IMG/VR virus record: IMGVR_UViG_3300032245_001127
DNA length: 64,000 nt
Origin: a virus
Direction: 5' to 3' (one strand)
Of the stretch, positions 5,895-56,066 are shown piece by piece. Positions within the stretch are counted from its first letter, which is position 1. Each line of letters opens with the position of its first letter. The position numbers and the translations under genes were made by a program. The notes beneath the pieces are model-generated. The model ran no database searches, was not told the origin of the DNA, and worked only from the letters and a program-made list of their open reading frames with translations.

Positions 5895-5911
5895 AATATA
5901 ATATTTAGGTA

Positions 5912-22351: not shown

Positions 22352-22364
22352 AGCATTATTTAGG

Positions 22365-22670
22365 TTATCCACCTATAAAAACTTTGTTACTTCCAGAGCC
22401 TATTTTATCACCACAAGCAATATTATCAAAAGTTCTACTCGCTGGATATCCTTCGATCGTTACTTTCGTTGAACCAGTCGAAACTTTACGTTGAACACCA
22501 GCATGCGTAATTAATAAGCAAGTATGACTAATATAGATTGTTCTATTCGTTTGTACTACTGGTTTTCCCTGAATAGTCGTCTTTAATGAGAACGGACCAC
22601 TCGGAAGTCTTGCTGGCCAACATCCATGACCAGTCGAAAGTGTAGTCGAAATTGCAGCTGGTTTTAACAT
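22365..22670 (-). CDS. PAAR spike tip protein (gp5.4-like)
   Basis: GHGCWP, HTC...H, GSTKVTIEG, ACGD..GSNKVFIGG; directly after gp5. Confidence 0.9.
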   Translation of the reverse strand: MLKPAAISTTLSTGHGCWPARLPSGPFSLKTTIQGKPVVQTNRTIYISHTCLLITHAGVQRKVSTGSTKVTIEGYPASRTFDNIACGDKIGSGSNKVFIGG

Positions 22671-28072: not shown

Positions 28073-28109
28073 TATAAATAGTTATTATTACTATTATTTC
28101 ATTATTTAG
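28073..28109. promoter_or_regulatory. Pair of late promoters at the divergent junction (TATAAATA + strand 28073-28080; CTAAATA - strand 28103-28109)
   Basis: Exact T4 late consensus and its variant in the gp48/gp4 intergenic gap. Confidence 0.65.
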
Positions 28110-28111
28110 GT

Positions 28112-28555
28112 ATGTTTCATAAAAGAAAGTATAAACCAATACATCCAGAGAAATATGCAGGTGATCCTACTTGTATTATTCTAAGAAGTTCATGGGAATC
28201 AAGATTTGCATCTTGGTGCGATAGAACACCATCGGTGATTTCATGGAAAAGTGAAGAAATAGTCGTACCCTATCGATCCCCAATCGATAATCGTCTTCAT
28301 CGTTATTTTATTGATTTTTCAGTCTCTGTAAGAGAGAAAGATACAAATACTCTTCGAACATATTTAGTTGAAATTAAGCCAGAATCTCAAACAAAACCAC
28401 CCAAATTTCCTGGACGCCAAACTAGATCATATCTAACAGAATGTAACACTTTCCTTGTAAATTCAGCTAAATGGAAAGCAGCAACAGAATATGCCAAAGA
28501 TAGAGGGCAACATTTTATCATATTAACAGAAAAGCATTTAGGGTTGGCAACCTAA
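28112..28555 (+). CDS. gp4: Head completion nuclease gp4
   Basis: RSSWE..F..WCD..W.SEE..VPY..HRYFIDF..EIKP..N.AKW.AA. Confidence 0.95.
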   Translation: MFHKRKYKPIHPEKYAGDPTCIILRSSWESRFASWCDRTPSVISWKSEEIVVPYRSPIDNRLHRYFIDFSVSVREKDTNTLRTYLVEIKPESQTKPPKFPGRQTRSYLTECNTFLVNSAKWKAATEYAKDRGQHFIILTEKHLGLAT

Positions 28556-28563
28556 ATAGTGCT

Positions 28564-30681: not shown

Positions 30682-31413
30682 ATGGCTTTGCCAATGAATA
30701 CGACACCAATTTATACGTTGGTGGTACCATCTACAAAACGTGAACATCGCTTTAAACCATTTGTTGTAAAACAAGAAAAGGCATTATTAATTGCGATGCA
30801 ATCTGAAAACGAAAAGGTGATGGTAGATACTTTAAAAAGTATCATTTCAGATTGTGTACTTGATATAAATGTAAACGAACTTTCAATGTTTGATCTAGAA
30901 TATATATTCTGTTCTTTACGTGGTAAGTCCGTTGGAGAAGAAGTAGAATTAATTGCTCGTTGTAATTCAAAAGAATGTGAAACCAACGATAAAGCAAAAA
31001 CGTTAATTAAATTAAATATAATGGATATCCCAGTGGTTACTGGTGAAGGACATTCTAAAAAAATTCCTTTATTTAATGATGTAGGTGTGATAATGAAATA
31101 TCCATCAATCGATACGTTAATTAAACTAAGTGAGTTTAAAAAAGAAAAATCAGCAGATACTGATTTAATCTTTAAGATAATTGCTGATTGTATTGAAAGT
31201 ATATATGATGGTGTTCAAATATATCCTACAAAGGATCAAACACCAGCTGAAGTGCAAACGTTTTTAGATAATTTAACAAATGAACAGTTTGCTAAAATAC
31301 AAAATTTCTTTACAACAATGCCGAAACTGACAAAGACAATTGAATTTACATGTTCGGTATGTAATAAAGCACAAACTCGTAAAATAGAAGGATTAGCAAA
31401 TTTTTTTTCGTAA
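30682..31413 (+). CDS. gp26: Baseplate hub assembly protein gp26
   Basis: MALP..P.Y..PS..FKPFVVKQEK.LL, FDLEYIF..LRGKSVGE, MKYP, FFTTMPKL, CSVC..EGLANFF. Confidence 0.93.
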   Translation: MALPMNTTPIYTLVVPSTKREHRFKPFVVKQEKALLIAMQSENEKVMVDTLKSIISDCVLDINVNELSMFDLEYIFCSLRGKSVGEEVELIARCNSKECETNDKAKTLIKLNIMDIPVVTGEGHSKKIPLFNDVGVIMKYPSIDTLIKLSEFKKEKSADTDLIFKIIADCIESIYDGVQIYPTKDQTPAEVQTFLDNLTNEQFAKIQNFFTTMPKLTKTIEFTCSVCNKAQTRKIEGLANFFS

Positions 31414-31598
31414 TGCTCAGCCATGAGTCATTAGTGAACTTCTATAAAACGAATTTCGCATTAATGCAGTATCACAAATATACGATGACTGAGCTTGATG
31501 AACAGTTACCCTTTGAAAGAGAAGTTTATATAAGTATGTTGATAAAACATCTAGAAGAAGAAAAACAAAGAAACGAACAAAGAAAGTTAAAATCGTAA
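31413..31598 (+). CDS. gp51: Baseplate hub assembly catalyst gp51
   Basis: YKTNFALMQYHKY...PFEREVY. Confidence 0.9.
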   Translation: MLSHESLVNFYKTNFALMQYHKYTMTELDEQLPFEREVYISMLIKHLEEEKQRNEQRKLKS

Positions 31599-33101
31599 AT
31601 GGCACTCGCAGCAGTACTAGAGCAACAACAAACGCAAACGAATAAACCGATCCCAACTACATTAGTTGATTCGGCAGGTCGTCCATTGTCTATTGTCGAA
31701 GAACTTCAAAAATCAACTAAAACTCCGACTCGAGAAGATACAATCGAAGCAAACTCTCAATTAGCAAAACAAACTCAATTATTAGAAATTATTGCGAATG
31801 CTGTAAGTGGAAAAGGTTCTGCTGGTTATAGCGATTCTAAATCAAAATCAAAAGAAGATAATTCAAAGATGTTTTCTGCAGCCACAGGTGGAATCGTAGG
31901 TGCAATTACTGTAATGTTATTAAACACAATCAAATTTCTCGGTTCATTCGTACTCCGTGCAGTTCCGCAAATTGGAAAATTATTGTTAGCGACAGTGGCA
32001 AGATTTGGTTTATTAATACCAACATTAGTTATTGGTGTTTTTAAAGGATTATTTGATTCAATTAAATTAGCTTTCTCAGGAGCAGATTTTGGTGATGTGG
32101 TAACAGAATTTGTATCAAGTTTAATCAATTTCCTTTCATTCGGTTTTATTTCAAAAGAAACTGTAAAGAATGGTATTTCTATTCTTACGAATGCAGTTAA
32201 AGATTATATTATTGATCCTATAATGAATTTATTCTCTTCAATTGAGAACTTTTTTAAAACAAACATATTTGATCCGATTGAACAAGCATTTAAACCAATA
32301 GTAGATTTTTTCACAAACATTAAAAACACTATATTAAACTTCTTTGAAGGATTGTCGATTCCAGAAATTAAATTTACTATTCCGATCGTAAATAAAGAAG
32401 TAAGTATCGGTCCGTTTTCTCCATTTAAAAAATCGCCAACAGTGGCTCCACAATCTTCGCCAACTCTTCCTGCGCCATCAAATACAGAAGGAGTTTCTGC
32501 AGATCTTTCAGGACAAACTGCACCAATCACACCAGTATTTACGAAACCAATCGTTCCGAGCGCATCTCCGATAAAAATGAATAGAATGCCTACTGAAGAA
32601 GCAAAGAATATATTGGACAAAAATAAAGGTTTAGAGGATGCAATGAACATTCGAATGAATGGATTAATGATGAGTGCTTCAATGTCAGGTGGTCAATTAA
32701 AAGATGAAAAAATACAAGCTGCTCTTTCTGAAATTGGGTCAAAAGAAGAAGTACAAGCATATCTTACAGTAAACAAAGATAAAATTTCTCGAATCCAAAA
32801 ATATGCTAATGAAGAAAGTTTACAAGGAATTTCAGGATCAGAAGTAAAAAATACAAAAGCCCAAGAAGCTGGAAAAATAACTCCAGCACCAAGTACAACT
32901 GGAACAGATCTTACGAATAAAACAATCGCTGCTGAAGAAGCAAAAAGTTCTTTGAGTGGCACTACAAATGTAGCATCAACACCAATTACAACGATTAATA
33001 ATGCACCAACACAACAAACAACATTATTTGGTAAATCGCCAAGAAATGATGAGTCATCGATTAATCGTTACATAGATCGATCATATGGTGTCAACATTTA
33101 A
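31599..33101 (+). CDS. Putative tape measure / hub protein (gp29-like)
   Basis: Follows gp26-gp51; hydrophobic segments and amphipathic helical repeats, low-complexity tail. Confidence 0.6.
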   Translation: MALAAVLEQQQTQTNKPIPTTLVDSAGRPLSIVEELQKSTKTPTREDTIEANSQLAKQTQLLEIIANAVSGKGSAGYSDSKSKSKEDNSKMFSAATGGIVGAITVMLLNTIKFLGSFVLRAVPQIGKLLLATVARFGLLIPTLVIGVFKGLFDSIKLAFSGADFGDVVTEFVSSLINFLSFGFISKETVKNGISILTNAVKDYIIDPIMNLFSSIENFFKTNIFDPIEQAFKPIVDFFTNIKNTILNFFEGLSIPEIKFTIPIVNKEVSIGPFSPFKKSPTVAPQSSPTLPAPSNTEGVSADLSGQTAPITPVFTKPIVPSASPIKMNRMPTEEAKNILDKNKGLEDAMNIRMNGLMMSASMSGGQLKDEKIQAALSEIGSKEEVQAYLTVNKDKISRIQKYANEESLQGISGSEVKNTKAQEAGKITPAPSTTGTDLTNKTIAAEEAKSSLSGTTNVASTPITTINNAPTQQTTLFGKSPRNDESSINRYIDRSYGVNI

Positions 33102-40634: not shown

Positions 40635-40931
40635 CTACATGTATCTGTCCATTAGCTTTTTTTGTTTATGCCAGCGAACTCTTGCTGCTTCTTTAGCTAA
40701 TTTTCTCTTCTCGCTTGGTTTCGAATATGCTTGACGATCACGTATTTCTTTAATGATCCCAGCACGATCTACTTTCTTTTTGAATCGTCGGATGGCTTGT
40801 TCTAATTTTCCTTCCTCCACGAAAACAGTAATTCCTGTTTCTTTTGGTCGAACATAGTTCGAACGTTTATCTCGTGTAGGATCAAAATTTTGACGATCTC
40901 TAGACCGAAAGTTTTTATTATATGGCTTCAT
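40635..40931 (-). CDS. rpsU: Ribosomal protein bS21 with N-terminal extension
   Basis: V.VEEGKLEQAIRRFKKKV...GII.E.RDR.AYSKPSEKRK..K.AA. Confidence 0.9.
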   Translation of the reverse strand: MKPYNKNFRSRDRQNFDPTRDKRSNYVRPKETGITVFVEEGKLEQAIRRFKKKVDRAGIIKEIRDRQAYSKPSEKRKLAKEAARVRWHKQKKLMDRYM

Positions 40932-45758: not shown

Positions 45759-46373
45759 TTATATGTTAAAATATTTACCCTCTATTTCCATCACTGCAGT
45801 TACTCTCCAATGTCCTGGATTAGTTGCATTATTTACTAATTGATGTTGAATATCATGTCCATTAAATGCTCTAAATTCTCCAGTTTTCCAAACTCTTTTA
45901 ACTCCATCAAATATTAATGCTTGATTTTCTGGATCTGGTATATCAATTCCAAAACTTACTGTATATCCACTAATTGATGGATCTCCAACACTTTGACGTA
46001 TCCAATCCCAAACATAACCATCATGATGGACTGGAAGCATTTTTCCTGGACGAATAAAATTAATACACATATCAATCATTCCTTCAATTTGAAATGCTGC
46101 TTTCATACTTCGATTCCAACCCAAACTCCATTTTTCTTGTACTTTTCGACCATCTATTACAGGAAGAGCCTTAAAACCCCCTTTATTCGCTTCAGGCATT
46201 GCGTATCTTTCGTCTGCGTTCACAGTATCAGTTTCTATACTAAAATTGTTTCTCCATGCTGCATAATCGTTTAAAAGGGCTTGCATGAGCTTTTGCAATG
46301 CACCATAATCTTTATATTGTATTGGATCACCTAACCACATAATTCCTCCTTTATAAAGCCCACTCTGTTTCAT
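45759..46373 (-). CDS. Asp/Asn beta-hydroxylase-like Fe(II)/2OG dioxygenase
   Basis: PGKMLPVHHD..W.TGEFRAFNG..QH.LVN..WRVT. Confidence 0.8.
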   Translation of the reverse strand: MKQSGLYKGGIMWLGDPIQYKDYGALQKLMQALLNDYAAWRNNFSIETDTVNADERYAMPEANKGGFKALPVIDGRKVQEKWSLGWNRSMKAAFQIEGMIDMCINFIRPGKMLPVHHDGYVWDWIRQSVGDPSISGYTVSFGIDIPDPENQALIFDGVKRVWKTGEFRAFNGHDIQHQLVNNATNPGHWRVTAVMEIEGKYFNI

Positions 46374-46926
46374 TTGTATCTACAATTGCAGACACTCTCC
46401 AATTTCCAGTTTTATTCCAAACTTTATGCATATAATTTCTTCCATCAAAAGCAACTATTTCGTTATTTGCATATGCTCTTGGAGCTGAATCGTTTTCAAA
46501 TTCTATTCCAAGTATTTTCGGATCATTGCTTGGCATATCAATACCGATTGCAATAGTCCAGCCTTTTACAGCATGACCAACTGATTCTTCAATTCTTTGC
46601 CAACTACCAAAATCTTTATGTAATGGTAATCCACCAAATGGTGTAATGAAATTTACTATTGACTGAAATACTCCAGGAATTTCTTTTAAAACTGCAGTAG
46701 AACGATGCCAGTCATTAGGTACAGCTTTTGTTCCTTGTATAAGTGGAATAGCCCACCAAGAATCTGCATGTTCATGTTCTGCGTTTGGATATTCGTAACG
46801 AAAAACATTAATTCCTTTTTCTTTAATATTATGATTCCTTGAAAATGAAAAATAATCTGCTTGTAAAGCAACTGATAACGATTTTAACATTTCATAATGT
46901 TTGAATTTTTTTGGATCTATCCACAT
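46351..46926 (-). CDS. Asp/Asn beta-hydroxylase-like dioxygenase
   Basis: LPLHKD..EIVAFDG..MHKVWNKTGNWRV. Confidence 0.8.
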   Translation of the reverse strand: MWIDPKKFKHYEMLKSLSVALQADYFSFSRNHNIKEKGINVFRYEYPNAEHEHADSWWAIPLIQGTKAVPNDWHRSTAVLKEIPGVFQSIVNFITPFGGLPLHKDFGSWQRIEESVGHAVKGWTIAIGIDMPSNDPKILGIEFENDSAPRAYANNEIVAFDGRNYMHKVWNKTGNWRVSAIVDTNETEWAL

Positions 46927-46927
46927 A

Positions 46928-47647
46928 TTATTCTCCTGTATAAGTAGCCCATCTATTTTGTAAATAATAGAGGTCTGAATTTTTTAAATTATATTGCGTA
47001 TATTCTAAATCTATAATTGCTGTAACACGCCAGTCGTTGCTATGATTATATACATCATGATAATGTGTTTTTCCTTCGAAAGAAACCCACTCACCAGTAT
47101 TCCAACCTTTTTTTTCTGGTACTCCAGTGTATTTATTTTTAAAAACAAATCCCATATTAGTAGCATTAGTTGCTAATCCTAATACATTACTGAATCCATT
47201 TAGTGGTCTTCCTATATCTTTTTCAATTCTTTTCCATCCACCTGTATCATCATGAGATGGTAATTCTGATTTTGGTTTTACAAAATTAACAATAAATTGT
47301 ACTATTCCTGGAAGTTTTAAAGCCAATTCTGCTGACTCTTTCCAGTCTTCAAAATTTTTCATTTTCTTATTTCCGCAATCAGTAAATACTGCATCGCAAA
47401 ACCAATATTCGTTTGGATTATGTCGATCTTCAATAGATTCTGGTCTATGGTATAGATCGTCGCCACCTTTTACATGAGCATAATCTGGATAGACGTCATG
47501 GTGTTCAAATTTTTGAACTTGAATACGTTTTGCATATGCTTCATTTGTACCATATTTAAGTTTCCATTTTTCAAAGTCTGATTGTATTACTTTGCCTAAA
47601 AACATTAAATCGTCATAATTTTTATATAATTTAGTATCAATCCACAT
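46928..47647 (-). CDS. Asp/Asn beta-hydroxylase-like dioxygenase
   Basis: LPSHDD..GEWVSFEG..YHDVYNHSNDWRV. Confidence 0.8.
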   Translation of the reverse strand: MWIDTKLYKNYDDLMFLGKVIQSDFEKWKLKYGTNEAYAKRIQVQKFEHHDVYPDYAHVKGGDDLYHRPESIEDRHNPNEYWFCDAVFTDCGNKKMKNFEDWKESAELALKLPGIVQFIVNFVKPKSELPSHDDTGGWKRIEKDIGRPLNGFSNVLGLATNATNMGFVFKNKYTGVPEKKGWNTGEWVSFEGKTHYHDVYNHSNDWRVTAIIDLEYTQYNLKNSDLYYLQNRWATYTGE

Positions 47648-47651
47648 AATT

Positions 47652-48695
47652 CTATTCTCCCTTTGAATCCTCTATCATTTCTTCTGCATGTAATTCTATA
47701 TAATTCATTATATTATGATATTCTTGATATTCTATAAAATATTGTTTTAATAAATTAATCGTTTTAGATCCTAAATTGTTCCAATAAAAAAGCAATTCAT
47801 CGTCTGGTATTGAATCAACATAATGTTTTATTCCACCATTATCTGTTAAATATTTAACATTCGAAAGAATATGTTTATAGATAATGCTTTCATTTTCTGA
47901 ATCTACAACTATATTTATCTCTCTCATAGTTGGTTCTTTTAAAGTTACATAATGATCGTTTTCTAATTTAATTGTCGGATGTGGTTTTGCAGGTAATATA
48001 ATTGTTTCTTTATTACCATTAATAATAATTTCTTTTAATCTCTCATTAATAAAATGTTTTTTATCAATATCTATAACTGCTGTAATTCTCCACTCATTCG
48101 TGTCATTCCACATACTATGACCAGCTTCTTTACCATCAAAACAAACTATTTCTCCTGCTAGTGGATATTTTTGAATTCCTTCGACATCCATTCCTACTGT
48201 TTTTTCATTTTTGTTTTTCATTCCAGAAAATAATGTAACAACCGCACTATAACCATCTACTTTTCTTTTTAATTGTTCTTCAATACGATCCCAATTACTT
48301 GTATCTTTATGTGGAGTTATTTTACCATGTGGTTTGATAAAATTTATAAGTATTTGATACACTCCATTTAATTTACTCAATGCTTCCCAAGATTTAGGAA
48401 AAACTATTTTATCCCAAACTCTATTATAATAACATGGAATAGTTTTCCAATCATCTGCATGTTTAAATTCTAAATTATTTGAAGGAACTTCAGTCAATTC
48501 GCCAACATATTGTTTTGGTACAATCGTTAAACGGCTAATTTTAGTTTTTGCTTTATCTCCAGTACCATAAGCACTTAATGCATCTGTTTCTATATTATGT
48601 TTTTGTACCCAAGCTAATATATCTTGTTGTAAGTATGGAACTATTTTTTCTAAATCAGAATAATGATTATAATTTTTTATATTAATCCAAGACAT
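47652..48695 (-). CDS. Asp/Asn beta-hydroxylase-like dioxygenase fused to a gp26-like C-terminal domain
   Basis: ITPHKD..GEIVCFDG..HSMWNDTNEWRI; extra ~120 aa aligning by eye with gp26. Confidence 0.75.
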   Translation of the reverse strand: MSWINIKNYNHYSDLEKIVPYLQQDILAWVQKHNIETDALSAYGTGDKAKTKISRLTIVPKQYVGELTEVPSNNLEFKHADDWKTIPCYYNRVWDKIVFPKSWEALSKLNGVYQILINFIKPHGKITPHKDTSNWDRIEEQLKRKVDGYSAVVTLFSGMKNKNEKTVGMDVEGIQKYPLAGEIVCFDGKEAGHSMWNDTNEWRITAVIDIDKKHFINERLKEIIINGNKETIILPAKPHPTIKLENDHYVTLKEPTMREINIVVDSENESIIYKHILSNVKYLTDNGGIKHYVDSIPDDELLFYWNNLGSKTINLLKQYFIEYQEYHNIMNYIELHAEEMIEDSKGE

Positions 48696-49770
48696 TTCTT
48701 CGTTCCCCTTTTCTTTTTATATCAAGTGTTAAACAATGAACACCACCATCCCAAAAACCACCTTGTCTTTGATTTGCCACATGTAATTTAATTCCGTGCG
48801 ATTTAAAAAATTCTTCTAATTTTGGTTGATGGTTGCTTACAACTATGTTCGATTCATCTACCACTACGACATTACTATCAAAAGCAACTTCTTGTGCGAA
48901 TCCACGCCACTCAGATATCCATTCTTTAATCCATTCAATACTATATTTTCCTTCTGAAGCTGTCATTCGATGATCGTATTGTATCATATCTATATTTGTA
49001 ATTAAATGACCAAAAGAATGTACATTTATATTTTTATTTTTTAATATAGCTTCTGGTACATAATTTATATCTGTACAAAAACAAGTAGTGTCATTAGTCA
49101 TAAAAAAGAACTGATCGATATGTCCCCAACCACGATGTGGCTTATTTACGTTATCAATAAATTTTGTAGAAGGAATATTTCTTTTCATCCAATCTAATCC
49201 TAATGCTGTTCCAGGACCAGCTGAATTTACAATTATTGAATCGCCAACTTTATACATTGTTGCAGTATGCCATAATATTCTATTCACCAAATCTCTTCCA
49301 TATCTGTCGCCACCATGTGTAAACCATTGAGTGTCAGGTGGAAAATCTTTAAGTAATGGAACTGGTGTGCTTATCCAGTTATAAGAATTTTTTGTGTACT
49401 TTTCTAAAAATATATTATAAAATGCTAATGACTCTAACCATCGATCAGCCATTGAAGTATATGCTGAATAGATTGTATTTCCATAAACAATATAGGAATC
49501 TCTTGGAACAATTGGTGCGATAGGATTTTTAATTTTAAATTTAGGAAGTTTTAAATTACTTTCAAACGGAAGTATTTCTGGACGATAAACCTTTACATTT
49601 AAAGATTCAAATACTTTTTGCATATTATCTAAATCTTCTTTAGTTTCAAGAATAATGGGTTCTAACACACGCATTACTTCTGCACTTACAAATGATTTAT
49701 AATAATCAGGTGTAGGAATATTTCCTACTATAATTTCCTCTAAAGGATCATAATCTGTCCAAACACTCAT
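48682..49770 (-). CDS. Amidinotransferase (glycine/inosamine type)
   Basis: YDPLEEIIVG, PRD, GHID, GGVHCLTLD catalytic His/Cys. Confidence 0.9.
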   Translation of the reverse strand: MSVWTDYDPLEEIIVGNIPTPDYYKSFVSAEVMRVLEPIILETKEDLDNMQKVFESLNVKVYRPEILPFESNLKLPKFKIKNPIAPIVPRDSYIVYGNTIYSAYTSMADRWLESLAFYNIFLEKYTKNSYNWISTPVPLLKDFPPDTQWFTHGGDRYGRDLVNRILWHTATMYKVGDSIIVNSAGPGTALGLDWMKRNIPSTKFIDNVNKPHRGWGHIDQFFFMTNDTTCFCTDINYVPEAILKNKNINVHSFGHLITNIDMIQYDHRMTASEGKYSIEWIKEWISEWRGFAQEVAFDSNVVVVDESNIVVSNHQPKLEEFFKSHGIKLHVANQRQGGFWDGGVHCLTLDIKRKGERRNVLD

Positions 49771-49776
49771 AATAAT

Positions 49777-50256
49777 TTATTTAGGTTGATAATCTTTACC
49801 CCATACATCTTTAAGATAATTCTCATCCCAAAAACTATAATAATTTGTTTTAATTAGAGAATCTCTTGCTTCATTTAATTCTTTTTTAGGTTGGCATAAC
49901 ATAAAATTATAATAACCATTATTTGTTTGTACGCCATTTATAAATGTTTTACGATCTTTATGGTCAGCTAAAAACACTAAATCTGGAAATTTGTTCGCAT
50001 AGAAAGAACACCAAGAATCCATATATTCAGGTGTAATGTTTAAATTTGTAACTGTATATACTTTAATTCTTCGAATATTCTCAACAGATGGAGCTATAAA
50101 ATTTTCGTCCATATGTAAATATTCTGGAGTTGGTACACCAATACCTTTACTAAAAGGACAAATAGAATGACCATCGAGTGCTTGACGAGGAATTTTAATC
50201 CTCGCCAGCCACTCTTGTAATGCTTCTTTTGGTGTTATATTATGCTTGTCGTACAA
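49777..50256 (-). CDS. Hypothetical protein (DUF1415-like CPF motif)
   Basis: W...I..P...L.G.SICPF; DH; L..AR..L..T.YY..W. Confidence 0.55.
   Translation of the reverse strand: MYDKHNITPKEALQEWLARIKIPRQALDGHSICPFSKGIGVPTPEYLHMDENFIAPSVENIRRIKVYTVTNLNITPEYMDSWCSFYANKFPDLVFLADHKDRKTFINGVQTNNGYYNFMLCQPKKELNEARDSLIKTNYYSFWDENYLKDVWGKDYQPK
49778..49784 (-). promoter_or_regulatory. Late promoter motif CTAAATA
   Basis: 7 nt before amidinotransferase ATG; same geometry as before gp25 and gp2. Confidence 0.5.
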
Positions 50257-50731
50257 GATATTGATCCTTCATTGAAATAGGATCAAAATATTCTATAATC
50301 ATACTTTTCACCATTTCAATATCAAAAGTTTTACATGAAAACAAATCAAAATACATATCACCATTTATATCTAAAAAGTGTATAGTTAATGAACTTGTTG
50401 TCAATGGTTGTATTACTGTCCATCCAGCAATTTCTGGCTTTTCAGCAAAGTGTGTAATCCATGGGGTTCCCCATGCATTCATGTTTATTCTTTTTAATAA
50501 ATCCACTACGAAAGTTTCTAGAATTTTAGGTTCATTAAAATTCTTTTTACATCCTTTCGCATCTAATATTAAATGATATCCCCATGATTGAATAGCAGTA
50601 TTTGCATATTTTTCATGGAATACTCTGCCCACATTATTATTTCCACTGTTCTCAAGTGAAGAAGGAACAGATTTTATTTTTGAAGTTTCGCGTTGGGGAA
50701 ACTCCTGTAGATTTAACTTTGCTTGAGTCAT
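50240..50731 (-). CDS. speD: S-adenosylmethionine decarboxylase-like pyruvoyl proenzyme
   Basis: WGYHLILDAKGC, GWTVIQPLTTSSLTIHF, YFDLFSCK.FD. Confidence 0.82.
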   Translation of the reverse strand: MTQAKLNLQEFPQRETSKIKSVPSSLENSGNNNVGRVFHEKYANTAIQSWGYHLILDAKGCKKNFNEPKILETFVVDLLKRINMNAWGTPWITHFAEKPEIAGWTVIQPLTTSSLTIHFLDINGDMYFDLFSCKTFDIEMVKSMIIEYFDPISMKDQYLVRQA

Positions 50732-50734
50732 CTT

Positions 50735-51910
50735 TTACTTATTTACCTCTATTACTTGCGACATACATTTTCCTCCGAAACCGAAAGAATTATTTAATGT
50801 ACGCAAGACTTTTTTGTTTGTTTTTAAATTCTCACGAACCAAAATTCCTTTTGTATCGCAAGATGCCTGTTTTAAATTTTGTATATGTGGAATAATTCCC
50901 TCTTTCATTGAAATGATTGAGTAAATGCATTCTAATATACCAGCTGCAGCAAGAGTGTGTCCTATTTTGGATTTTGGAGCCCAAATAGGTTTTTCACCTA
51001 CGAAACTGACTACTGTTTCATACTCGATTGGATCACCAATTGGTGTAGAAGTTGCGTGCGCACACACAAAATCTATATCATTCACATGACCCATTGCTTT
51101 AGACATAGAAATACGAGCACCTCGTCCATCATTTGCAGGACTCGTCATATCAAGTGCATCACTCGCCATACCACAAGGATATAAAGTTGCATGCACTGTA
51201 CTGCCATATTTCTTGACCATTTTTTCACTTTGTAATATAAGTACACCACATCCATCTCCCATCAGAAATCCTGAACGAGAATCATCGAAAGGCATACTTG
51301 TATTCGCAACTGCACCTAAGGTGTTAAAATATTTAATCGCCATAGGAAAACAACCTGCATCTGCACCTCCTACAATGACATATTCATATTCATCGCAGAG
51401 ACGCATTCCATAATCAATAGTTACAAGTCCAGTTGAACAACTCGCGAAAGTTGCAGCACTTAGACCCATAAATTTGTAATGAGAAGTAATATGAGAACAT
51501 CCCATGTCTGGAATACGATTAGCACTCTTACGTGGGTTTACTCTTTTATTACTTTTCGTCGGCAAATACAACTCATCTAAAAATTCTGTATCATTTGACA
51601 CAGTTGATAGAAGAGTTGCCACATCGTAGTGATGTGGTAATTTTGACATAATCAGTGCATCATTCACAGCATGCAACATCATTTTCTGTGCATTTGTTAA
51701 TGAACGTAACATCTTATTGTCAAATTCTTTTGGTATAATACAAGTATTAGGATCAAATATTGCTCCTCTATATACTTTACTATTGTCCGCAATCAGTTCT
51801 GGTATATCTTTAGAATAATCATTATTATCTAACATTCGATTAAAACAATCTTTAGGATTATTCCCAAGACTATCAATCATACCATAACCTACAACATAAA
51901 TTTTATTCAT
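50735..51910 (-). CDS. fabF: Beta-ketoacyl-ACP synthase (FabF/FabB-like)
   Basis: ASCSTG, AHATST, KSKIGHTLAAAG, NNSFGFGG: intact Cys-His-His triad. Confidence 0.93.
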   Translation of the reverse strand: MNKIYVVGYGMIDSLGNNPKDCFNRMLDNNDYSKDIPELIADNSKVYRGAIFDPNTCIIPKEFDNKMLRSLTNAQKMMLHAVNDALIMSKLPHHYDVATLLSTVSNDTEFLDELYLPTKSNKRVNPRKSANRIPDMGCSHITSHYKFMGLSAATFASCSTGLVTIDYGMRLCDEYEYVIVGGADAGCFPMAIKYFNTLGAVANTSMPFDDSRSGFLMGDGCGVLILQSEKMVKKYGSTVHATLYPCGMASDALDMTSPANDGRGARISMSKAMGHVNDIDFVCAHATSTPIGDPIEYETVVSFVGEKPIWAPKSKIGHTLAAAGILECIYSIISMKEGIIPHIQNLKQASCDTKGILVRENLKTNKKVLRTLNNSFGFGGKCMSQVIEVNK

Positions 51911-55184: not shown

Positions 55185-55191
55185 TATTTAG
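55185..55191 (-). promoter_or_regulatory. Late promoter motif CTAAATA
   Basis: AACCTAAATAGTAGCATG, near-identical to AACCTAAATAGTGCTATG before gp2. Confidence 0.6.
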
Positions 55192-55192
55192 G

Positions 55193-55981
55193 TTAATTTA
55201 AAACTAAATCGGATAAAATAGGATAAATTGCTTTCCAATGTGTGTAGTTATCACCATAGTATTCAGCTTTAAAAAGACCAATTTTATAAGATAAACAAAT
55301 TCTTACGCCACTACTTTTATTTATTACATTATGCATTCTTCCTACATTAGTTAATGATGGTTGTGTCCAATCATTAGATAAATTGTGTTCGTAAATAAGT
55401 TTATCATTTTCATCATAATAGTTTTGTTGACTTAATCCACTTTTATCAAAACAATATACAAAATTTAATTTAGTACATTCATATGTAGTATCTTGGTGCG
55501 TTCTTAACCAACCATTGGGACCAGAAATAAAAATATCCCAACCAAGCAATTTAAGTTTTCTAGAATTTAAAAAAGAAGTAAAACGAGGAGACACTAACTC
55601 ATCACACACGTTATTATCTACAATATCGATACTATCTTCCCAGTCTTCAGGTGCTCCAATATATGGTATTTTCATTCTATTTTCAGAATAACTTATTTTA
55701 GAATAACTAGAAAATTTTTCAATATCATCTTTAGATTGAGTATATCTTACACCAGATGTATAACCTGATTCGTTGATAGTTGTTTTATTCCAGACTATTT
55801 CTTTTGAATAATTATGAATTGTAGGATGAAGTATTAAAGAATATGGTTTATATTCTTTTCTTGGATTAATTTCCCATTTTTTTGGATATGGAAGTAACGA
55901 AAACCAAGATTCCAAAGAATATGGTTTTAAAAATGGTTTTGGTAATTGCAGACGAACTGCATATGGTTCATAACTAATCAT
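55193..55981 (-). CDS. Cupin-fold Fe(II) dioxygenase-like, family B
   Basis: THQD..KLNF..PSLTNVGRMHNVIN....RICLS. Confidence 0.7.
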   Translation of the reverse strand: MISYEPYAVRLQLPKPFLKPYSLESWFSLLPYPKKWEINPRKEYKPYSLILHPTIHNYSKEIVWNKTTINESGYTSGVRYTQSKDDIEKFSSYSKISYSENRMKIPYIGAPEDWEDSIDIVDNNVCDELVSPRFTSFLNSRKLKLLGWDIFISGPNGWLRTHQDTTYECTKLNFVYCFDKSGLSQQNYYDENDKLIYEHNLSNDWTQPSLTNVGRMHNVINKSSGVRICLSYKIGLFKAEYYGDNYTHWKAIYPILSDLVLN

Positions 55982-55989
55982 ATTAATTT

Positions 55990-56066
55990 TGGCTCACTCG
56001 GCAAGACTCGAACTTGCAACCTCCAGATTCGTAGTCTGGCATTCTATCCAATTGAACTACGAGTGA
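55990..56066 (-). tRNA. tRNA-Arg(ACG)
   Basis: Acceptor TCACTCG/CGAGTGA, anticodon arm CCAGA-CTACGAA-TCTGG, T arm GCAAG-TTCGAGT-CTTGC, encoded CCA. Confidence 0.96.

Follow-up and report, generated by a model that had tools for sequence, protein, structure and literature searches.

The window, i.e. the entire stretch of 64,000 nucleotides analysed here, is part of a T4-like myovirus with a G+C content of ~31%. It contains a baseplate module, composed of gp5, gp6, gp8, gp25-like and gp48-like genes as well as a gene for a VrlC/DUF4815 giant protein, and on the plus strand a hub module, in which gp26 is directly followed by a 61-aa gp51_C-like ORF and then by a gene for a tape-measure-like protein. 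The gene content agrees with that of the freshwater pelagimyophage group PMP-D, genes in common being those for ribosomal protein S21, FabF, an AdoMetDC/speH-like enzyme and Asp/Asn beta-hydroxylases (PMC7029224). The S21-like gene is located at 40635-40931 (minus strand), its identity being inferred from the corresponding gene of a 98%-identical contig (L004), and a single tRNA-Arg(ACG) gene (55990-56066, minus strand) belongs to an enzyme island in the same part of the window. These two genes and those for FabF and the AdoMetDC-like enzyme are in line with group PMP-D (PMC7029224). A megablast search of phages with the hydroxylase region of this island returned no match. The nearest record (G001) has one gp26.

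Within the island, a gene on the minus strand encodes a hydroxylase fused to a C-terminal tail. The first 14 nt of this gene lie within the end of the amidinotransferase gene upstream. The locus comprises the following features:

47652-48695, minus strand: whole fused gene (P0001), 347 aa in one continuous frame
48051-48695, minus strand: catalytic domain, residues 1-215, PF05118 Fe(II)/2OG hydroxylase (Pfam, alignments, ESM Atlas)
47994-48050, minus strand: linker, residues 216-234, of low model confidence and differing between lineages
47718-47993, minus strand: gp26-C-like domain, residues 235-326, ~92 residues (hhalign, Pfam, AF2 with Foldseek, ESM Atlas)
47655-47717, minus strand: residues 327-347, which prolong the last helix towards the C-terminus
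45759-47647, minus strand: three untailed paralogous hydroxylase genes (46928-47647, 46351-46926 and 45759-46373)
48682-49770, minus strand: amidinotransferase, 362 aa, directly upstream, ending in GGVHCLT (PDB sequence matches)

The three paralogues align with residues 1-215 of the fused protein and extend no more than 17 residues beyond the ...WR(V/I)TAVID... strand. Since they stop near this strand, the remaining ~130 residues of the fused protein represent an extra tail, which bears out the preliminary description, according to which a tail of ~120 aa is missing from the three paralogues. The gp26-C-like domain has the element order beta-beta-alpha-alpha-beta-beta-alpha-alpha and contains no cysteine. 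Residues 327-347, which are shorter in relatives, stand where gp26 has a zinc-ribbon hairpin. The fused gene combines domains of known families in a new architecture.

Residues 82-211 match PF05118 with 26.3 bits (E 7.7e-6), that is above the Pfam cut-off of 22.6 bits. The related fused protein P0005 also passes this cut-off (23.4 bits), and the three paralogues lie below it (16-22 bits). H129, D131, H193 and R203 are invariant in alignments of 8 paralogues and orthologues and likewise in 11 orthologues. The fused gene encodes a PF05118-type Fe(II)/2-oxoglutarate hydroxylase, in which the H-x-D...H...R set is intact. Almost all of the nearest ESM Atlas clusters (29/30) are viral stand-alone PF05118 proteins. 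The family is divergent. Its profile found only weak matches in the PDB (NgTet1, E 0.056), and a tblastn search of 50,697 phage records with the whole fused protein gave no match. PF05118 covers protein hydroxylases such as AspH and CinX as well as the lipid hydroxylases LpxO and OlsC. Membership in this family does not by itself reveal the substrate, and the designation as a protein hydroxylase in the preliminary description is not supported by it.

The continuous fused ORF is also present in L004, in a 54%-identical lineage (L001-L003, three runs) and in a 36-39%-identical lineage represented by 18 contigs (P0130/132/135/136), and it occupies the same syntenic position in all three lineages. 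An assembly artefact, which the preliminary description had named as an observation that would speak against the fusion, was rejected because the same continuous ORF occurs in independent samples; the fusion is real. A sister lineage (P0129/131/133/134, ~202 aa) carries an untailed orthologue at the same position, and no stand-alone tail-like ORF was found beside the untailed orthologues in contigs of 2-5.8 kb. When the paralogues were used to root a tree of catalytic domains, one branch (support 86/93) separated the fused from the unfused forms. A single gain or a single loss accounts for this distribution; the fusion probably originated once, in a lineage of freshwater T4-type phages resembling pelagimyophages, and was retained thereafter. 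A ~20-residue N-terminal insert (residues ~47-66 of P0001, window ~48498-48557) is common to all tailed orthologues and missing from the untailed ones, indicating that insert and tail were gained or lost together. In the arrays of four to seven tandem hydroxylases, the tail is confined to the first enzyme.

The tail diverges faster than the enzyme: between P0001 and P0005, identity amounts to 33-38% in the tail and to ~62% in the catalytic domain. Relative to L004, the window has seven nonsynonymous changes and one synonymous change in the tail and one nonsynonymous and two synonymous changes in the catalytic part, counts which are too small for an interpretation of dN/dS. The motifs LKEPT, KHY and LKQY are invariant among the tails.

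The genes of the hub module that are relevant for comparison with the tail are:

30682-31413, plus strand: gp26 homologue (PF12322, E 7e-58), of which residues 121-216 (nt 31042-31329) are homologous to the tail
31413-31598, plus strand: gp51_C-like 61-aa ORF, in the -1 frame relative to gp26
31599-33101, plus strand: tape-measure-like protein, 500 aa, candidate partner of gp26-type domains (phrog_4200, E 1.4e-5)

The best matches of this gp26 among isolated phages are cyanomyophage proteins with ~42% identity. A BLASTP comparison of the tail with the gp26 of the window gave no alignment (E 28), which argues that the tail is not a recent gp26 duplication. When the tail was searched against 24,736 Pfam models, the sole match (E <= 10) was PF12322 (T4_baseplate; E 0.0012), spanning profile positions 102-188 of 219 with 19.0 bits, which is below the gathering cut-off of 24.5 bits. 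Against the same model, the 96%-identical relative had E 0.0033; 17.6 bits were obtained for the L004 tail, and the tail of P0005 alone had no T4_baseplate match in Pfam. Profile-profile alignment of three tails with 56 gp26 sequences using hhalign yielded a probability of 84% (P 7e-6, score 40.5) over 103 columns, pairing tail positions 12-115 with gp26 residues 110-215. As a control, 200 column shuffles gave a mean score of 13.4 (sd 2.6, maximum 22.3) and reversed alignments ~13. Upon addition of four more divergent fused relatives, the resulting set of seven tails reached a probability of 93.7% (P 1.9e-7, score 50.2; 150 shuffles, 12.1 ± 2.2, maximum 18.7). Both scores are more than 10 sd above the column shuffles, and the signal rises when divergent tails join, as true homology predicts. 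P0003 and the 33%-identical P0008 align singly in the same register (scores 30.2 and 24.3), and the four most divergent tails alone reach 21.4 against gp26, which is not significant, again in this register over 50 columns. The register (offset ~97) recovers all three segment pairs that had been aligned by eye between the tail and the C-terminal half of gp26, and the profile comparison thereby upholds the resemblance proposed in the preliminary description.

Searches within the window pointed in the same direction. Among 202 stop-to-stop ORFs, the gp26 HMM ranked the fused ORF second after gp26 itself (E 2.9e-4; next ORF, E 0.08), and with the window ORFs as decoys in hhalign, the fused ORF gave the sole long non-self alignment (93 columns, score 30.5), the decoys scoring at most 23 over 14-26 columns. 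The reciprocal test was weak: the tail profile matched the single gp26 sequence with E 0.036 in hmmsearch and lay outside the top 6 in hhalign. Outside the window, tblastn of the tail against the 50,697 phage records returned noise only or no match, a search of PHROGs found nothing, and in an exhaustive phmmer search of 1.84 billion representatives only P0005 was a real relative. P0006 and P0007 from the latter search were rejected as compositional matches. Neither the tail nor the gp26 profile found anything meaningful among PDB sequences, and there is accordingly no solved gp26 structure to compare.

To compare the structures, we used an AF2 model of the tail that was built from three tails only, without any gp26 sequence as input (pLDDT 78, pTM 0.70, core >85), and a model of gp26 (pLDDT 84). 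Foldseek searches of BFVD with the tail model retrieved mainly gp26 proteins annotated as 'baseplate hub subunit / assembly chaperone / assembly catalyst' (E 7e-4 to 0.2, TM 0.44-0.52, rmsd 2.4-4 Å, ~87 columns), originating from Vibrio, Serratia, Proteus, Pseudomonas, Acidovorax, Acinetobacter, Aeromonas and Rhizobium phages; siphovirus tail-assembly and tape-measure chaperones came next in the list. At the hhalign offset, the secondary-structure elements of tail and gp26 agree one for one:

strand: tail E30-32, gp26 E127-131
strand: tail E38-41, gp26 E134-138
helix: tail H46-54, gp26 H143-153
helix: tail H58-67, gp26 H160-170
strand: tail E69-73, gp26 E171-175
strand: tail E79-81, gp26 E180-182
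helix: tail H87-95, gp26 H188-196
helix: tail H99+, gp26 H200-211

Conserved positions that correspond in gp26 and tail are L130/L33, K139/K42, P141/P44, D176/D74, E190/E89, L198/L97 and F210/F109. Beyond the last matched helix, gp26 continues into a cysteine-bearing hairpin and the tail into a long helix. C94, C224 and C227 are invariant in the 56 gp26 sequences, whereas the tail is cysteine-free and has a helix in place of the hairpin. A single-sequence model of residues 237-328 resembles a 116-aa PF12322 cluster in the ESM Atlas (TM 0.59/0.62), and the existence of this cluster indicates that the subdomain occurs alone in some viruses. The models thus lend independent support to the resemblance to gp26 noted in the preliminary description. 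Matches of the tail to solved tail assembly chaperones were weak, both with VIA (3fgx, Z 5.1; 5ir0, Z 4.7; 3klu, Z 3.9) and with Foldseek (HK97 2ob9, E 0.055), all of them too low to be relied on. A weak resemblance to the chalcone-isomerase / fatty-acid-binding protein fold recurred in both models, i.e. in tail residues 26-120 and gp26 residues 120-214, with scores (4doi, Z 4.8 and 3.0; 4dol, Z 3.4 and 3.5; 4doo, Z 3.8) too low for an interpretation.

Taken together, these data confirm that the tail is a real but distant homologue of part of gp26, residues ~235-326 of the fused protein corresponding to gp26 residues ~121-216, and they support the view that it represents the central/C-terminal subdomain of gp26. 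The earlier proposal of a recruited domain resembling the phage's own gp26 therefore holds with regard to gp26 ancestry; the tail is not a recent copy of this gp26, being only ~18% identical to it and lacking the zinc ribbon and the N-terminal chaperone-like domain.

What gp26 does bears on what the tail may do. According to the list of Leiman et al. 2010 (PMC3004832), it is a hub assembly chaperone, and it is uncertain whether virions contain it. Its N-terminal domain (residues 1-94, 30682-30963) resembles solved tail assembly chaperones (3fgx, Z 8.1; HK97 2ob9, Z 6.8; YqbN 3klu, Z 6.7; 5ir0, Z 5.0), suggesting that gp26 may be the T4-type tape-measure chaperone. In this phage, gp26 looks like a two-domain tail assembly chaperone, the second subdomain of which is transplantable as a module. 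To our knowledge, the function of gp26 in T4 has been unclear for decades, and the fusion draws attention to gp26 itself.

The end of gp26 carries a T TTT TTT heptamer located 4 nt before the stop codon (window 31396-31420). In relatives with 60% and 51% identity (L013:2200-2429; L015:2170-2429), the heptamer falls on the invariant FF at the C-terminus of gp26. The -1-frame segment of the 51% relative offers neither ATG nor GTG nor TTG as a start codon, nor was a gene called there. The PHROG 150 (gp26) profile runs on over the gp51_C-like segment in the -1 frame. From the sequence, this arrangement looks like a conserved G/GT-type programmed -1 frameshift, which would yield a gp26-gp51C fusion.

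The fused gene is located 17 kb from the hub genes, inside a biosynthetic-looking island with a ketosynthase gene, an AdoMetDC-like gene and many dioxygenase genes as neighbours. The gene order KAS, AdoMetDC-like gene, ~160-aa gene, amidinotransferase and hydroxylases is conserved in all lineages, including the stop/start overlap, and the fused hydroxylase gene overlaps the amidinotransferase gene in every lineage examined. The amidinotransferase matches HsvA (3e-19) as well as StrB1, AGAT and SxtG (~1e-15) among PDB sequences, and its gene lies two genes from the AdoMetDC-like gene (50240-50731) and three from the FabF-like ketosynthase gene (50735-51910). Upstream of the operon, we noticed a sequence that recurs in the window:

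49778-49786, minus strand: ACCTAAATA, late-promoter-like 9-mer, which precedes the start codon of the amidinotransferase gene by 7 nt

There are nine ACCTAAATA sites in the window as compared to 1.1 expected (5902-5910, 22357-22365, 28103-28111, 28550-28558, 49778-49786, 55185-55193 and three more), each of them on the local coding strand. Most sites precede a start codon by 5-13 nt, and six are positioned just upstream of one. Genes preceded by the motif include gp2-like, gp48-like and other structural genes as well as the amidinotransferase-hydroxylase operon, and ACCTAAATA is a candidate for the late promoter of this phage group. At the operon, the motif shares sequence with the final codons of the upstream gene, and in the P0130 lineage it is missing at this site.

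The gp26-like tail suggests that the hydroxylase is docked on tail-assembly proteins. Given that gp26 appears chaperone-like in its N-terminal domain, in its tape-measure neighbour and in the apparent G/GT-like -1 frameshift, the borrowed subdomain would most likely act as a protein-protein docking module. In this way, it would bring the hydroxylase to whatever the subdomain contacts in gp26, that is the tape-measure/hub assembly intermediate, or to gp26 itself, and the enzyme could then act at the place and time of tail morphogenesis. We assign a probability of roughly 0.4 to this reading, in which the transplanted subdomain docks the hydroxylase on the partner of gp26, i.e. a tape-measure/hub intermediate, or on gp26 itself, late in infection; it is thus a tentative one. 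Docking on the hub or the tape measure is plausible because gp26 looks like a tail assembly chaperone, and the fact that ACCTAAATA is common to structural genes and operon counts for late timing. Several observations count against docking: the sister lineage has an untailed orthologue at the same position; the residues common to tail and gp26 are mostly core positions, leaving no conserved binding surface evident; ACCTAAATA overlaps upstream codons and is absent in the P0130 lineage; and PF05118 includes lipid hydroxylases besides protein hydroxylases. Once docked, the hydroxylase might modify a residue of the hub or the tape measure, or might ride into the particle. The more specific version, according to which the enzyme captured a chaperone piece in order to ride the tail intermediate, where it would hydroxylate a hub or tape-measure residue or be delivered with the tail, appears unlikely to us. 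The earlier interpretation, in which an assembly-chaperone domain links the island to modification of the virion, is thus partly supported: the origin of the domain is supported, whereas virion modification is hypothetical.

Other explanations of the tail have to be weighed against docking. A resemblance to gp26 by chance or convergence, drawing on a small alpha/beta arrangement common in AT-rich phage proteins, would explain why pairwise BLASTP is empty, why the Pfam score stays under the gathering threshold and the P0005 tail alone has no Pfam match, why the four most divergent tails alone reach only 21.4, and why Foldseek E-values are modest and VIA Z-scores against the PDB do not exceed 5.1. 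However, four partly independent lines (Pfam HMM, profile-profile alignment with controls, AF2 with Foldseek, ESMFold with Atlas) agree on region and register and the signal grows with added homologues, so that we regard coincidence as very improbable. Homology granted, the tail might descend from gp26 and yet be an appendage that serves oligomerisation or stabilisation in general and does not target anything specifically. Its much faster evolution as compared to the enzyme domain and its dispensability in the sister lineage would fit, and the long terminal helix seen in the model could form a coiled coil. Yet, an open, confidently folding domain with invariant LKEPT, KHY and LKQY motifs has been kept down to 38% identity, and the substitution counts are far too small to indicate relaxed selection, which makes such an appendage quite unlikely.

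The location of the gene raises a different possibility, namely that the gp26-like domain was recruited for the chemistry of the island itself, where it would recognise a partner or a substrate, without any link to the baseplate. It could hold a peptide or a carrier protein, or else a second enzyme of the island, for example the amidinotransferase or one of the paralogous dioxygenases. Indeed, the distance of 17 kb from the hub module and an island of amidinotransferase, ketosynthase, AdoMetDC-like enzyme and multiple dioxygenases fit a metabolic pathway better than virion assembly. Strict synteny in all lineages and the stop/start overlap of the amidinotransferase gene with the first hydroxylase gene speak for such a co-option, as does the restriction of the tail to this first hydroxylase, and the ~20-residue N-terminal insert of the fused forms hints at an intramolecular or pathway-specific role. 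Moreover, tandem dioxygenase arrays of cyanophages have been read as systems for peptide or secondary-metabolite modification (PMC2938197). On the other hand, no substrate or carrier gene was identified in the island, all relatives of the domain that could be detected are tail-assembly proteins, and the island has the same promoter-like motif as the structural genes; we consider co-option for island chemistry the main rival of docking and somewhat less probable than it.

The large sets of 2OG dioxygenases encoded by T4-like phages from marine and freshwater habitats are unexplained. A member tagged with a tail-assembly domain provides the first concrete, testable handle on where such a phage dioxygenase acts. 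If the more specific version were true, in which the enzyme rides the tail intermediate and hydroxylates a hub or tape-measure residue or is delivered with the tail, this would be the first case of a phage tail modified oxidatively by an enzyme that a chaperone domain targets to it.

When compared with known systems, the tail (residues 235-326) has the fold, the element order and a profile-level signal in common with T4-type gp26 (PF12322, PHROG 150). It differs in lacking the Cys4 zinc ribbon and the N-terminal domain (gp26 residues 1-94), in place of which the hydroxylase is found, and the fused gene lies outside the hub module; moreover, the tail is attached to an enzyme, is ~18% identical to gp26 and stays under the Pfam cut-off. 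Stand-alone Asp/Asn beta-hydroxylases (PF05118) are core genes of pelagimyophages (PMC7029224). As compared to this family, the catalytic domain is above the cut-off and its ligands are intact, and the fused protein adds the C-terminal gp26-like domain and the N-terminal insert of ~20 residues. With respect to tail assembly chaperones of the lambda G/GT type (HK97 2ob9, YqbN 3klu and 3fgx), the match resides in the N-terminal domain of gp26. The gp26 gene is located ahead of the gene for the tape measure and contains a slippery site of the G/GT-like kind, whereas the fused tail matches these chaperones weakly (Z 3.9-5.1; Foldseek E 0.055). A similar scenario is provided by cyanomyophage Syn9, which has 10 dioxygenases, one of them fused to TPR repeats (Iyer et al. 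2010, PMC2938197). In both cases, an island of many tandem 2OG dioxygenases contains one member fused to a protein-interaction module, but the module described here is derived from a tail-assembly protein and the island additionally encodes an amidinotransferase, an AdoMetDC-like enzyme and FabF.
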